From sequence record MK327941.1: DNA of 64,000 bases; one strand, 5' to 3'. The stretch is from Escherichia phage vB_EcoM_G37-3. Positions 10,168 through 15,580 of the stretch are shown in pieces. Both the position numbers and the translations under genes were made by a program. The notes under the pieces are model-generated. The model made no database searches. It worked only from the letters and a program-made list of their open reading frames with translations, and was not told the DNA's origin. How positions within the stretch are numbered: position 1 is the first letter of the stretch; the number at the start of each line of letters is the position of its first letter.

Positions 10168-10176
10168 TAAACGAAA

Positions 10177-10201
10177 GGCGGGGATTATCCCCGCCTTTTT
10201 A
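10177..10201 (+). terminator. rho-independent terminator after gene 54 (bidirectional)
   Basis: GGCGGGGATTATCCCCGCC followed by TTTTTA. Confidence 0.65.
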
Positions 10202-10711
10202 TTTGATTAAATCATCACATTGTTTGCGTAGTTTATAGCGATACTGTTTTGATTGTAGCAATTGAAGTTTTTCATAATCCCCTTCCTCATATGCAGCCGA
10301 AAGATCATCTTGATATGCTGCTTCCGTCCCGATTACACATACTCCAAATTTTCTACGACGGTCGGCATCTTCCATTGCTTTGCGATTCATTTCTTCAATT
10401 GAATTTTCATGACCATAATAATATTCGTAAATGCGTTTCTTCTCTGCTTCTTTATCTGCCTTAATCTTTGCGATCTGTTCTGCTGATTCCGGTTGACGAC
10501 CTAAACGCTGTAATGAGGCGTCTTTCTTTTCAAGGTAGTCAATCACGCAATCTTCAACGCTATTAAATGGAAAACGTGACTCTTTCTGCCATCGTTCACA
10601 TGACCGTACAAACTCGTGTGTATTCTTAGATGCAAGTGCCAGATCATGCACAGCGCACCCATTAAGCATAGCCACTAAAGCCGCAAGACCAATCAGTTTA
10701 ATCATTTTCAT
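10199..10711 (-). CDS. putative lipoprotein (170 aa)
   Basis: signal peptide with lipobox LNGC (MKMIKLIGLAALVAMLNGC). Confidence 0.6.
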   Translation of the reverse strand: MKMIKLIGLAALVAMLNGCAVHDLALASKNTHEFVRSCERWQKESRFPFNSVEDCVIDYLEKKDASLQRLGRQPESAEQIAKIKADKEAEKKRIYEYYYGHENSIEEMNRKAMEDADRRRKFGVCVIGTEAAYQDDLSAAYEEGDYEKLQLLQSKQYRYKLRKQCDDLIK

Positions 10712-11532
10712 TTAGTCACCTCACCGAAAATTGTAAATTGTCTACGATTCTCATCGCCGAAAGATTCTACTACGTCGTTTACCTTGACGCAAGTCCCGCG
10801 CGGTAAAATTACTTCACATTCGCAAGGGTTCCATGCAATTGACCCAACAACAAAACCTTTATGATCTTTTACGTCAATTACCCATGATACATTACAAGAA
10901 TGTTGCATCTTTCCGGTCATTGATTCATATCGATTCTCACAATAAAGGCTAGTGCTGTTTGATAGCCATCCTCCAAAGATGATTGGTGTCATGCTGGTAG
11001 ATACAAAGTTTTTAAAGGTAAACTCCTTATCTTCAATGATACGCTCTATTGTCTGAATGTCAAGATGTTGACCGCGATAAAGAGTACCGTTTAACTTTTC
11101 GGTTTTATCCATGACGCAATCCATCAAATCGACAATCTCTGATATCTCATCGGTCATGTCTTCTTCCCCTAAGAGAGCACCATTTACCCATTCGTATTGT
11201 TCAGACACATAATCACAGATTGCATTATATTCTGCTGGGGTTATGTTGTTATGTTTGTAATGTTTGAATACATTATCTCCAAAGTCTTCGGAGTGTACTT
11301 CATACATCACATTAATGATTTTCTTGACAAATCCATAATCTTGTGTCTCACGCTCAAGGAAGCGGATAACCTTCACATAATCATCAAAGTTAATCTGATC
11401 GCTAATCATCTCAGTGATCATGTAACCATTAATCCCCTCAATGTCATATGTTTCAATATAATTGTCCATACGTTCCATCATTGATTCGCGTGATTCTTCC
11501 GAAAGACGAAAATCCTGTAATTTCTTGAACAT
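10708..11532 (-). CDS. ADP-ribosyltransferase, Alt/Mod-like (274 aa)
   Basis: R-S-E motifs: LYRG, FVSTS, CECEVILPRG; paralogous to C-terminus of Alt. Confidence 0.7.
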   Translation of the reverse strand: MFKKLQDFRLSEESRESMMERMDNYIETYDIEGINGYMITEMISDQINFDDYVKVIRFLERETQDYGFVKKIINVMYEVHSEDFGDNVFKHYKHNNITPAEYNAICDYVSEQYEWVNGALLGEEDMTDEISEIVDLMDCVMDKTEKLNGTLYRGQHLDIQTIERIIEDKEFTFKNFVSTSMTPIIFGGWLSNSTSLYCENRYESMTGKMQHSCNVSWVIDVKDHKGFVVGSIAWNPCECEVILPRGTCVKVNDVVESFGDENRRQFTIFGEVTK

Positions 11533-11566
11533 TTTAAACCTCCCATATAACAGAAAACGGGGCTAG

Positions 11567-11594
11567 TATAAAACTAGTCCCCGTTTGAGTCAAC
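11567..11594 (-). terminator. terminator-like hairpin downstream of the ART gene
   Basis: ACGGGGCTAGT-ATAAAA-CTAGTCCCCGT with flanking T run on minus strand. Confidence 0.4.
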
Positions 11595-11610: not shown

Positions 11611-13662
11611 TTACATTTTAAATTTATCTGGCATTGCGTCTACAGATACCAGATCAGCGATAAGCTGACGTAGAGTTGCCTTATCTGCTTTCTTACGTTC
11701 GGTTTTAGCTTCGCTAATGAAGCTGGAGAAAGACAGGTCAGAAGCAGGTTTAACAACACCTTCACGGATGAATGCATCGCCGTCCGCGATCATCTCGCCA
11801 GATTCTTGTAATGCTGCCAGTTCATTTTTGTTCATAATATGTGCCTCAATGTAATAAGTTTCTTGTGAATCCGTCGATGCCGTAGCACGAGTTACCGTAT
11901 CAAAGGATAACACAACACCGCGAGGAAGTAAAATCTCGCATTCTTTGTAAGCAAATGCTTTGTTACCTACTGGCAAGACAGGGATGTTTTCCGCGCCAGC
12001 AATGGAGAAAGCAACATTAGCGCCACCTTCACCGCGAGAGCCAGCCATAGAATCAACACCAGCAACGGCACTAGCCACGTTTGCATTCCAGCCGCCAAAA
12101 ATGTTAGGTGCAAGGGAAGTGCTCACATAGTTTTTAAAGTAAAACGCTTTTTGCTTACGTGCAGTTTCCCACATTTGCGACCGGAAGTCCATACCACGAT
12201 ACAGAATAGTACCAGGATCAAGTTTAACGCCATAGTTAGAGAAGGCATTATCCAGTGCATCGCACATCTTGACCAATTCTTCTGGATCTGCGATTCCCTC
12301 AAACTCTTCCAGCTTACGGTCGGTTAGGAAGTTGTTCATATTGATGTATGCTGCATCGGCATATTCGCTCAACACAAAACCTTCCGCGCCTGGTAGATCA
12401 AGATCAATATCTGCCATCATTTCACCCATGTTGCTAGCAATTGCTTCAAACATACCGGAAGCAACATTACGTAGGGCATCGGTTTTAATCTGGGTGATAT
12501 GACTACGCAGCATTTCAGCTTTTACATCTGCTGGCATAGACTGGTCTACTCGATCCATTGCCAGGGCGGTGATCTTGTTTTCGAATACTTCCTCGCTCAT
12601 GATTTCTTTTAAGCGTTTGATTGATGCTGCGATAACTTCCGCAGACAATGGATCATATTGATCCTGAACTTTTACCAGTTCGCTTACTGCGTATTTTGCA
12701 TCGGCTTCGCTTTCAAAAATAGTACGCATGAAACCATAGCGAGTGATAATATCACTTGTCCAGTCATTCAGAGAACGGGCGGTTGAACGTTCTAAGGCTT
12801 GACGATCAATCAGAGTATTAAACTGTTTCTTAGGTTCGGCTTCGGTGATATCTTCTTCCGGTTTAAGATTAATTTTTTCTGGATGATTCACATAGTCGCT
12901 GTTATAGGTCGCTTGAGTTTTCAGCATTTCTTCTTTAGTCAAACGAGATTTAGCCGCTACGCGTTGTTCCGCTTCCGCGTTTCGTTCTTCTTCTGACACC
13001 AGACTAGCCGCATACGCCTCATCTTTAGTCAGAGATTCACCAGTAGCCTTAGATACCCAGCGATCACCTAAATCACTTTCTACTTTAGTGAACAAGGAAT
13101 CATCAAGTTTAATCCCTTTAATCTTATCAATCGCCATACCGCGACGCTTGACAACAACTAAAGCGATCTTTTTGCTGGTCATTACTTCCTGCTGGAATAC
13201 TTCAAACTTCGGTGTACGACGCACCAAACGCTCTATAACGCGCTTAACCAGTTCGGTCTTACCTTTCATGCGGGATACGTTAAAACGGAACATAACAGCG
13301 TCTAATTGCGCTTTACGGGCTGTTTCCATAACCACATCAAAAGCACTTGCCATAACTGCAATCGGGTTATCGCCTAGACCATTTTTAAGCTGTACAATAC
13401 GACCGCTTTTGTTCATTTCGCACAGTACAACATGCGCTGTCTTGTCACCCATACGAATGATTTTAGGTGTTTTGTTGGTGAAGTTACAAAGACGGACAAT
13501 CACATCTTTATCGCGTGTCTGTACTGCAAAAAGCTGTTTAGGATTCTGCTTAGGCTTTAAGCACTGTACCGGAGCAATACTACCAAAGTTTTCTTCCTCT
13601 TCCGTCAACAGCCATTTCTCGAAAGATTCAATCATTAGGTCGTCGATTTCTAAGTTAAACAT
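11611..13662 (-). CDS. alt: ADP-ribosyltransferase Alt
   Basis: 683 aa (T4 Alt about 682 aa); ILYRG, YVSTS, ECEILLPRG motifs. Confidence 0.9.
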   Translation of the reverse strand: MFNLEIDDLMIESFEKWLLTEEEENFGSIAPVQCLKPKQNPKQLFAVQTRDKDVIVRLCNFTNKTPKIIRMGDKTAHVVLCEMNKSGRIVQLKNGLGDNPIAVMASAFDVVMETARKAQLDAVMFRFNVSRMKGKTELVKRVIERLVRRTPKFEVFQQEVMTSKKIALVVVKRRGMAIDKIKGIKLDDSLFTKVESDLGDRWVSKATGESLTKDEAYAASLVSEEERNAEAEQRVAAKSRLTKEEMLKTQATYNSDYVNHPEKINLKPEEDITEAEPKKQFNTLIDRQALERSTARSLNDWTSDIITRYGFMRTIFESEADAKYAVSELVKVQDQYDPLSAEVIAASIKRLKEIMSEEVFENKITALAMDRVDQSMPADVKAEMLRSHITQIKTDALRNVASGMFEAIASNMGEMMADIDLDLPGAEGFVLSEYADAAYINMNNFLTDRKLEEFEGIADPEELVKMCDALDNAFSNYGVKLDPGTILYRGMDFRSQMWETARKQKAFYFKNYVSTSLAPNIFGGWNANVASAVAGVDSMAGSRGEGGANVAFSIAGAENIPVLPVGNKAFAYKECEILLPRGVVLSFDTVTRATASTDSQETYYIEAHIMNKNELAALQESGEMIADGDAFIREGVVKPASDLSFSSFISEAKTERKKADKATLRQLIADLVSVDAMPDKFKM

Positions 13663-13702
13663 TTTATATCCTCTAGTTGATAACCTATAAACCTATATTT
13701 AT

Positions 13703-13730
13703 GAAAACGGGGCTTAACGCCCCCTTTTTA
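13703..13730. terminator. terminator-like hairpin between small early gene and alt
   Basis: GGGGC-TTAAC-GCCCC followed by CTTTTTA. Confidence 0.45.
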
Positions 13731-13943
13731 TTATAATGCACCATCGAGCAATTGCTCTAAGGTGTATCCTGAATAGTCTTTTTCAATCAGGATATATTTT
13801 CCTACTCGTTTAATACAACCGCGCATTTCAACATATTCTGCGTAGTTGATGGTGCGAGTTGTTCCATCTTCTAGCAAAGCAGTACCGATTTCGTTAATGC
13901 GGTCATAAGTTACGTAGGTAATGATGATTTCGATGTTAGCCAT
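13731..13943 (-). CDS. small early protein (70 aa)
   Basis: True start MANIEIII at 13943 with AAGGAG; the longer track ORF reads through the promoter. Confidence 0.6.
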   Translation of the reverse strand: MANIEIIITYVTYDRINEIGTALLEDGTTRTINYAEYVEMRGCIKRVGKYILIEKDYSGYTLEQLLDGAL

Positions 13944-13977
13944 TTGATACTCCTTAGTAGTTCGTTTCGGTATGTGT

Positions 13978-14006
13978 ATTATAGGGGATCGATGATCCCC
14001 TGTCAA
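13978..14006 (-). promoter_or_regulatory. early sigma70-type promoter cassette (PeSL-like, palindromic spacer)
   Basis: minus strand TTGACA-GGGGATCATCGATCCCC-TATAAT, AT-rich UP region. Confidence 0.6.
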
Positions 14007-14014
14007 CAACTTTT

Positions 14015-14534: not shown

Positions 14535-14867
14535 TTATAGTCTCCTGAATGGATCATCACGTAAATCAATATCTTTTAAGAACTCATCCCATGAATGGCG
14601 GATATTGTTCTTAATTCTCCAGATAAGCGCAGGGATTGAACGCTCTCCCATCTGGAAGTATGGATCATATGATCCGTATGCCCAATATGCTACTACAATT
14701 CCACAATCAGAGCAATAGTATTCTATTTCACTTGCTGGCGACCAAAGTCCATCAATATGATCGGTGATCTTGCTTTCGATGTTATGGCTATGACAATCAG
14801 GGCAACGGATGCAATGACCTTGTTTATCGTAATTTGACGTTAGCGAATACTTAAACAATCTCATCAT
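14535..14867 (-). CDS. zinc-ribbon-like Cys-rich protein (110 aa)
   Basis: CIRCPDC ... CSDCG; translationally coupled to neighbours. Confidence 0.6.
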   Translation of the reverse strand: MMRLFKYSLTSNYDKQGHCIRCPDCHSHNIESKITDHIDGLWSPASEIEYYCSDCGIVVAYWAYGSYDPYFQMGERSIPALIWRIKNNIRHSWDEFLKDIDLRDDPFRRL

Positions 14868-15580
14868 AGATCCTTATTGGCTTCAAATACTGCCTTTGCG
14901 AATCCTCGCGGGGTAAGTGACCTTATAGTCTTTGTTTTCGTTCCTTTCCCGCCTAGCTTAGAATGCTGTTTACTGTACCCTTTATTAATCTGCAAAGGTT
15001 TCTTTTCTGGCATCATAAAGCCTTGTCCGGTCCATAAGCAAGTCTTTTTCGGGTACATATCACGGGCGGCAATATACTCAGGAAACGTAGGATGCTTATC
15101 ATCTTCCGGCAAATAACCGCCATATTCCCACGGATGAAACATATAATCAGGCTTACGCCACATGCTAGAGATAACGCTTACAGGATTCTCTATCATGTAG
15201 GGAACTCCTAGCCATTCACCCAAATAAGCGGTTATTTTAGCTGCCCGTACATCATGAACTTGAATCAATGGTCCTTGTTCTCGTTTCTTTCGTTCAAAGT
15301 GCGCAGCGCCACTAACAGCTAAATTGGTGCACGGTGGGAATGCAAAGATAATATCCGGTTTCCCCCATTCAAGGTCCATTGCTCTTTCCAGCCAGTTCAA
15401 ATCAATCCATGTGTTTACATAGGTAATGTTTGGATGTTCAAATCTGGTATTATACTTTTTGTATGTGCCGTGGTCGCCATCATCAGCATTAAAGCAGATC
15501 ACCTTATGACCTGCTTTAGCCCATTCTAGCCCCATTATCCCCGATCCGTCAAAGTTACAGAATATTAATTTTTGTTTCAT
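14864..15580 (-). CDS. compact C5-cytosine methyltransferase-like protein (238 aa)
   Basis: motif I-like FDGSGIMG, motif IV-like FPPCTNLAVSG (Pro-Cys nucleophile), motif VI-like ENP; no large target-recognition domain. Confidence 0.55.
   Translation of the reverse strand: MKQKLIFCNFDGSGIMGLEWAKAGHKVICFNADDGDHGTYKKYNTRFEHPNITYVNTWIDLNWLERAMDLEWGKPDIIFAFPPCTNLAVSGAAHFERKKREQGPLIQVHDVRAAKITAYLGEWLGVPYMIENPVSVISSMWRKPDYMFHPWEYGGYLPEDDKHPTFPEYIAARDMYPKKTCLWTGQGFMMPEKKPLQINKGYSKQHSKLGGKGTKTKTIRSLTPRGFAKAVFEANKDL

Follow-up and report, generated by a model that had tools for sequence, protein, structure and literature searches.

A short Alt-family ADP-ribosyltransferase gene beside alt in an RB49-type coliphage, with a predicted early promoter of its own

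The stretch of DNA analysed here, hereafter the window, comprises 64,000 nucleotides of Escherichia phage vB_EcoM_G37-3 (MK327941.1), an RB49-type coliphage of the genus Krischvirus. A catalytic-domain HMM found exactly two ADP-ribosyltransferase (ART) ORFs in it, and they are neighbours on the minus strand. The upstream one is alt (11611..13662; RB49p184), which encodes a full-length Alt-like ADP-ribosyltransferase of 683 aa and matches phrog_802, ‘Alt-like RNA polymerase ADP-ribosyltransferase’, at E=5.8e-180. The second, which we call ART2, follows after a gap of 78 nt; it is an ATG ORF of 274 aa in the ORF listing (10708..11532, minus strand) and corresponds to RB49p183, a short Alt-family ADP-ribosyltransferase and a paralogue of the neighbouring Alt. 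A Shine-Dalgarno sequence, GGGAGG (11539..11544, minus strand), stands seven bases ahead of the ATG (11532-11530) and is kept as GGGAGG, GGGAG or GAGGA at related loci; the predicted ribosome-binding site is a strong one. Immediately downstream lies an ORF for a predicted lipoprotein of 170 aa with a signal peptide ending in LNGC (10199..10711, minus strand; phrog_16112), the start codon of which shares ATGA with the stop codon of ART2; co-transcription and translational coupling of the two genes are therefore probable. The unit is closed by a 12-bp GC-rich hairpin (10173..10199), a bidirectional terminator that faces the convergent gene 54, and equivalent closing hairpins are present in the related contigs L006, L008, L010, L011 and L012. 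The order alt, stem-loop promoter element (described below), ART2, overlapping lipoprotein gene, terminator and gene 54 is found in every related contig that is long enough.

Neither the gene nor its relationship to alt is new. The 3.6 kb around ART2 match 58 phage records at 95–99% identity, RB49 among them, the best matches being vB_EcoM_011D4 and E26 (~98.8%), and ART2 itself is matched at >=60% amino-acid identity in 58 records, which is the number carrying the alt region. The RB49 protein (RB49p183, NP_891754.1) is the same protein at the same place between alt and gene 54: it is 100% identical by tblastn, and the 10 differences from the RefSeq RB49 gene are all synonymous, while the downstream lipoprotein allele differs between the two phages. 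RefSeq calls RB49p183 an ‘ADP-ribosyltransferase’ with the note ‘similar to C-terminal part of T4 Alt protein’, and ART2 matches phrog_15144, ‘ADP-ribosyltransferase’, from end to end (E=2.6e-198). RB49ORF183c was identified as a paralogue of alt by Nolan et al. 2006 (PMC1524935), who listed it with T4 alt.-1/alt.-2 as a paralogous alt duplication; a 2026 paper again noted paired Alt-like paralogues in one T-even phage (PMC13600099). Since both the annotation and the paralogy are already in print, we claim no discovery of ART2 as such.

An earlier note on this DNA had singled out the 274-aa ORF for three ART motifs and proposed that it is a paralogue of the catalytic part of Alt. All three motifs are present as described: LYRG at residues 151-154 (R153 codon, 11076-11074), FVSTS at residues 176-180 (S178-T179-S180 codons, 11001-10993) and CECEV at residues 237-241 (E238 codon, 10821-10819; E240 codon, 10815-10813). 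PF03496 (ADPrib_exo_Tox) matches residues 82-266 with 59.3 bits (E=4.3e-16), passing the curated gathering threshold of 23.4 and spanning positions 2-187 of the 196 in the profile, and in BLASTP against the window’s own Alt the protein aligns over 109 aa with 37% identity (E=1e-16) and with R, STS and ExE in register. By these scores the PF03496 and Alt matches lie far beyond chance; a search of NCBIfam gave no match for ART2 or for Alt. In an alignment of eight sequences (short-form ART2 relatives plus two longer ART homologues) R153, S178, T179, S180, E238 and E240 are all invariant. When short homologues and full-length Alts were aligned together (48 sequences), five of these six remained invariant and S180 nearly so (>=90%), and Y108, N117 and the LPR that follows ExE were also invariant or nearly so. 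Catalytic residues are thus kept across the 48 homologues, and the loss of them on careful alignment, which the note had named as the outcome that would speak against its claim, does not occur.

The fold points the same way. An AlphaFold2 model built from the 48-sequence alignment has a mean pLDDT of 92.4 and a pTM of 0.89, and its best Foldseek matches in the PDB are Vis, C3bot, CDTa, Certhrax and iota Ia (E=1e-10 to 1e-8); there were 114 PDB matches at E<=1e-3, and among the 50 listed all are ADP-ribosyltransferase toxins. The model thus predicts with high confidence a mixed alpha/beta ART fold of the C3/VIP2/iota/Vis type. A PDB search with the single sequence gave a marginal match only, and the family profile found Vip2, SpvB, C3larvin and iota toxin; the catalytic motifs align with the YRG, STS and E-A-E of Tre1 and SpvB. 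ART2 therefore has its fold and catalytic triad in common with Vis, the C3 exoenzymes, the enzymatic domains of iota Ia/CDTa/VIP2, SpvB and Tre1, at an identity of only 15–20%; it differs from these bacterial R-S-E toxins in carrying ~50 extra N-terminal helical residues, which it shares with Alt, and in being phage-encoded and devoid of a secretion or translocation domain. The Glu-x-Glu form of the ARTT element is typical of arginine-directed R-S-E ARTs. Purifying selection acts on the gene, with a dN/dS of 0.10 against a relative of 80% nucleotide identity. BLASTP, PF03496, the alignments, the family profile and Foldseek agree on paralogy to the catalytic part of Alt, as the note had proposed, and sequence and model together indicate that ART2 is very probably a genuine ADP-ribosyltransferase of this enzyme class.

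What distinguishes ART2 from Alt is its architecture. It aligns to positions 330-602 only of the 674-position Alt family phrog_802, and appears from the alignments to consist of the catalytic domain together with the helical lead-in that precedes it in Alt. Precomputed Pfam assignments give PF26846 plus PF03496 for full-length Alts and PF03496 only for the short clade; both these assignments and the phrog_802 alignment show the N-terminal Tevenvirinae_ADPRT domain, PF26846, to be absent from the ART2 clade. At the other end ART2 stops with the last strand of the catalytic domain, where Alt continues for ~75–90 residues; in the 8- and 48-sequence alignments no member of the short clade has residues in the columns of this conserved C-terminal Alt tail (...YDGD..E.GE...P.KF..). 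The note’s phrase ‘catalytic C-terminus of Alt’ is therefore apt for the paralogy and not for the extreme C-terminus. Compared with T4 Alt (gpAlt, 682 aa; packaged, injected and Arg-specific), to which it is 31% identical over 181 aa (E=6e-23), ART2 shares the LYR, FVSTS and E-x-E-V-I-LPRG motifs and the genomic neighbourhood; it differs in being without ~330 N-terminal residues (PF26846) and the C-terminal tail, and in having a sigma-70-like promoter in place of a late promoter.

The short form does not look like a recent product of its neighbour. In BLASTP ART2 scored 88 bits with T4 Alt, 85 with RB51 alt.-2 and 67 with the window’s own Alt. A neighbour-joining analysis of the catalytic domain (bootstrap with Kimura distances) placed the short proteins together in a clade of 96% support, outside the Krischvirus Alts and all other full-length Alts. 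On these two grounds, the lower score to the neighbour and the separate clade, we rejected a recent tandem copy of the window’s alt. The deep placement of the short clade has 34% support and may partly be a long-branch effect. Among 5.8 billion proteins clustered at 90%, ART2 had eight matches, six of them short-form, and at 50% clustering there were three representative clusters of full-length short-form relatives and a 76-aa fragment identical to ART2; the other proteins matched in the clustered search were all Alts of 600–710 aa. Judged by these searches and the tree, the ART2 clade is small and separate.

A second tandem Alt paralogue beside alt is common in T4-like phages, which bears on a contrast drawn by the earlier note. 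It had placed the additional T4 enzymes, modA and modB, elsewhere in the genome, which is confirmed, and had treated a paralogue adjacent to alt as a departure from T4, which is not: in T4 two decayed fragments of a second alt, alt.-1 and alt.-2, lie immediately downstream of alt, and phages of the T2/RB51 type have a complete 685-aa alt.-2 adjoining it, so the contrast is half right. The T4 pieces are unlike ART2 in being fragments of the Alt N-terminal part only. The T2/RB51 protein is like ART2 in being an Alt paralogue directly downstream of alt (32% identity over 194 aa, E=4e-22); it is unlike it in being full length, with the Alt N-terminus (MELITELFD...) and the C-terminal tail, and its place in the tree is among full-length Alt-type sequences and apart from the ART2 clade.

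With the Mod enzymes the likeness is one of type. T4 ModA and ModB are small, of R-S-E type, early and non-packaged, the last two being properties that we predict for ART2; they differ from it in locus and in showing no detectable sequence similarity. BLASTP of ART2 against T4 ModA gave E=8, and against ModB no match. RB49 moreover has a separate Mod homologue, a single gene beside srd that is closer to ModB, and orthology of ART2 with ModA or ModB was rejected on both grounds. T4 has three ART genes. RB49 has at least three, counted from about 66 kb of its genome, so that the RB49 set differs from that of T4 though the number is alike.

The 78-nt gap between alt and ART2 reads on the coding strand TTGACT, CAAA, CGGGGACTAG, TTTTATA, CTAGCCCCG, TTTTCT, GGGAGG and ATG. 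It contains a sigma-70-type promoter-like site (11565..11593, minus strand) with a -35 box TTGACT (11593-11588) and a -10 box TATACT (11570-11565), 10/12 matches to consensus, separated by a spacer of 17 nt. Interlaced with it is a GC-rich hairpin (11583-11558) that overlaps the -10 box, and a U-tract, TTTTCT (11557-11552), comes after it, the whole resembling an intrinsic terminator (11552..11583, minus strand). The hairpin has an MFE of -20.6 kcal/mol (z=-5.2), and none of 200 shuffled sequences was as stable. The layout of -35 box, stem, -10 box, U-tract and Shine-Dalgarno recurs in six more lineages, the ART2 proteins of which have 41–83% identity to that of the window, and is the same in RB49, where ART2 is identical. 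When six sequences from related lineages, the window’s included, were aligned over the stem, 90.7% of cells were paired, compared with 39–50% in slid controls, and 3/9 pairs had changed on both sides, which is covariation in a small sample.

Such an arrangement has a precedent in RB49 and phi1, for which the promoter-early stem-loop (PeSL) has been described: an intergenic sigma-70 consensus promoter, an A/T-rich upstream stretch and a GC-rich stem-loop between or over the -35 and -10 boxes, then a Shine-Dalgarno sequence and a start codon (PMC2839356). The same study found strong early promoter and terminator activity with lacZ fusions of three other PeSLs, PeSL193/192, 206/205 and 211/210. 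Our element, which would be PeSL184/183, matches the structural description and on that basis is a predicted PeSL, a variant of the commoner form TTGACAGGGGATC...GATCCCCTATAMT that is seen six times in the window. Transcription of ART2 would start ~7 nt past the -10 box, close to where the 3’ arm of the hairpin ends, so that the new ART2 transcript could not form it; only RNA arriving from alt would fold the hairpin and hence terminate. The hairpin may be leaky and allow some late read-through from alt.

Upstream of alt the signals are of another kind. A terminator hairpin (13723-13709) is followed there by cATAAATA (ATAAATA at 13702-13696; whole feature 13696..13723, minus strand), a late-promoter-like motif, and the same arrangement of hairpin and AATAAATA precedes alt in the relative L006. 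Of the two ART genes, only alt has the late-type ATAAATA upstream; the 78-nt gap holds no motif of this type. The late-promoter consensus of RB49-type phages has a variable first base (PMC1524935). As the exact string TATAAATA occurs four times in the 64-kb window, no more than expected by chance, the late-promoter argument rests on the relaxed ATAAATA core and is correspondingly soft. In T4, alt is late and ModA/ModB are early (PMC9697503), and both termini of T4 Alt are propeptides cut off by the prohead protease gp21 (PMC9026906).

The lipoprotein gene behaves differently from its surroundings. It holds the same position and keeps its lipobox in L006, L008, L010, L011, L012 and RB49; the window’s protein is only 33% identical to the RB49 allele while the flanks are 98.5% identical, and nucleotide similarity to RB49 breaks inside the gene, at about 10653-10215. 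The gene is hypervariable. In L012, the closest non-identical relative, alt and the gap are each 94% identical to the window at the nucleotide level, the lipoprotein gene 84% and ART2, the most diverged segment in the comparison, 80%; the pattern fits exchange of an ART2-lipoprotein module independently of alt.

We infer from the sequence enzymatic activity, early timing and absence from the virion, and the reading that best accounts for the locus as a whole is that ART2 is an early-made, non-packaged, Arg-specific mono-ADP-ribosyltransferase acting on one or more host proteins; we give it a probability of roughly 0.6. That the enzyme is both early and non-packaged we regard as fairly probable on the promoter, the architecture and the gap element. 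Shortly after infection, unmodified host RNA polymerase would use the early promoter belonging to ART2 to transcribe it. The alt transcript would stop at the hairpin terminator in the gap, and the sigma-70 promoter interlaced with that hairpin would start an early transcript that covers ART2 and the coupled lipoprotein gene and ends at the strong terminator beyond. Because Alt is late and, in T4, packaged and trimmed, and ART2 has neither the Alt N-terminal domain nor its C-terminal tail, ART2 is probably not in the phage head. It would use NAD+ to ADP-ribosylate one or more cytoplasmic host proteins, complementing injected Alt and the Mod homologue, and would act after infection, as a relative of Alt by descent with ModA/ModB-like timing. 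The earlier note had suggested an ‘injected or early’ enzyme with another target; early is favoured by the conserved sigma-70 promoter, injected is less likely given the missing PF26846, tail and late motif, and a target distinct from that of Alt is plausible. A literature search on RB49-type phages yielded no relevant activity, expression or virion data for ART2 or any member of its clade, and no Krischvirus virion proteome.

The most serious competitor has ART2 as a second injected enzyme, present late because enough of it persists or through read-through from alt, targeted to the prohead core by its leader, cut in gp21 fashion after L-S-E12 and delivered like Alt. The N-terminus of ART2, MFKKLQDFRLSE, loosely resembles the capsid-targeting sequence of T4 IPIII, MKTYQEFIAE, and it contains R-L-S-E, whose L-x-E is consistent with the pattern cleaved by the prohead protease; several clade members likewise have [LI]-x-E within their first 8–20 residues. 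Yet a leader rich in Glu should often contain [LI]-x-E by chance, one member (P0006) lacks it near the N-terminus, and the first ~12 residues of ART2 are unconserved across the clade. With a leader so variable and a motif so short, we did not adopt MFKKLQDFRLSE as a capsid-targeting leader and keep it as a minority alternative only. Context lends this alternative something: ART2 sits in a T4-type alt setting beside tail and head morphogenesis genes, and Iyer et al. take that setting as suggestive of packaging (PMC9503650). Nor does the promoter settle the matter, since the regulatory elements beside packaged T-even internal-protein genes are themselves built on T4 early promoters (PMC2839356), so an early promoter does not exclude packaging. 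Against delivery stand the absence from ART2 of both PF26846 and the conserved tail of Alt, the lack of a late motif before the gene and the strong terminator between it and alt. Altogether we consider injection unlikely.

Two further explanations concern whether ART2 works at all and whether it works alone. Decay of second alt copies is seen in T4, and truncated alt.-2-type ORFs of 415–446 aa occur in some T-even phages (P0007, P0178, P0180), so ART2 could, like T4 alt.-1/alt.-2, be the relic of an old alt duplication that is degenerating or has lost catalysis, and play no enzymatic role. This we hold to be very improbable in view of the invariant catalytic residues (S180 nearly so, >=90%, across the 48), a dN/dS of about 0.1, a full domain modelled at pLDDT 92, a predicted promoter of its own with a strong Shine-Dalgarno, and a position that is unchanged in lineages as distant as 41–48% identity. 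Alternatively, ART2 and the lipoprotein would form a functional pair (for instance with the lipoprotein as partner, regulator or immunity-like factor of the transferase, or with both serving superinfection exclusion or remodelling of the host envelope), rather than ART2 acting alone on transcription or translation proteins. The two genes keep their order and ATGA overlap in every related locus long enough, they have one promoter and one terminator in common, and in L012 both have evolved faster than the DNA on either side (80% and 84%, against 94% for alt). However, the two products occupy different compartments, the lipoprotein being anchored by its lipid in the periplasm and the enzyme, which has no signal sequence, being cytoplasmic; small genes that are unrelated are as a rule transcribed together in these early regions; and the swapping of lipoprotein alleles (33% in RB49) beside an ART2 that is 100% identical argues against tight co-adaptation. 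A pair is for these reasons improbable, and its special case, a toxin with its immunity protein, is unsupported on the same grounds of compartment and of allele swaps beside an unchanged ART2.

Within the reading of ART2 as an early, non-packaged enzyme, a more specific proposal can be made, which we advance tentatively and hold to be doubtful as a whole: an early ART2-lipoprotein module, bounded by the PeSL and the terminator, is exchanged among Krischvirus-like phages independently of alt, and its ART2 is non-packaged with targets unlike those of Alt. On this proposal ART2 might fill the slot of a second Mod enzyme, RB49 having one Mod gene and T4 two; it might act on a host defence or translation factor; or it might use NAD-capped RNA, as ModB does.

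As a discovery ART2 matters little, and its residual value is practical. What the analysis adds is modest: the minimal architecture of ART2, its separate clade, the conserved PeSL insulating late from early expression and the coupled hypervariable lipoprotein gene. The gap would be a clean example of a PeSL that separates a late-gene from an early-gene programme within 78 nt. Phage ADP-ribosyltransferases are under active study, as with RNAylation by ModB and the action of Alt on MazF. The short clade would represent a naturally minimal, probably soluble catalytic domain of the Alt family, apparently on a schedule other than that of Alt, and this combination would suit it well to studies of how the paralogous ARTs of phages share out their host targets.

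The window carries six near-identical copies of the classic PeSL (promoter-early stem-loop), all on the minus strand and all following the pattern AAAAAGTTGTTGACAGGGGATC...GATCCCCTATAMT: 14006-13978, 16139-16111, 19644-19616, 21010-20981, 21404-21376 and 59210-59182. Small early ORFs lie downstream of them, and the six elements correspond to the repeated promoter/stem-loop cassettes known from RB49 and phi1. A mechanical ORF listing gives a 92-aa, TTG-initiated ORF at 13731-14009 (minus strand) that reads through a PeSL; translation most likely begins instead from the ATG near 13943, which follows the Shine-Dalgarno sequence AAGGAG and yields a 71-aa product (MANIEII...). Consistent with this shorter form, the match to phrog_10679 spans only residues 22-92 of the 92-aa ORF. 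The deposited gene call for P0009, the ART2 homologue of a metagenomic relative (L008, 1530-2345), begins within the PeSL hairpin (MMSPFSVIGRFK...), and judging from the conserved Shine-Dalgarno sequence and ATG the protein likely starts at MFSVDWK....

Two further genes lie on the minus strand. The 184-aa ORF at 14015-14569 matches PF03235 (E=5e-20), the DUF262 domain found at the N-terminus of GmrSD type IV restriction enzymes, as well as phrog_1583, and spans only about the first half of both profiles; a phage-encoded GmrSD_N fragment without the nuclease is curious for a T4-like phage. A few genes upstream of alt, the same early cluster includes a 238-aa DNA methyltransferase gene (14864-15580; RB49p189), found again at locus L001 (10983-11699).

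Downstream of ART2 lies a gene for a predicted lipoprotein (170 aa, 10199-10711, minus strand; signal peptide MKMIKLIGLAALVAMLNGC; phrog_16112), whose start overlaps the ART2 stop in a shared ATGA. Its position is constant across all related loci, while its sequence is hypervariable: the window and RB49 alleles share 33% amino acid identity between flanks that are 98.5% identical, and nucleotide similarity breaks at this gene (~10653-10215). Four cysteines are conserved, and the protein may be a surface factor or serve in superinfection exclusion.

Finally, short Alt paralogues also occur in some T-even phages, such as vB_EcoM_IME540. The 415-446-aa ORFs P0007, P0178 and P0180, from some Tequatrovirus-type phages, correspond to just the C-terminal part of alt.-2 or Alt: they keep the catalytic domain and tail but lack the N-terminal domain. 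These short paralogues arose independently and are separate from the Krischvirus clade.
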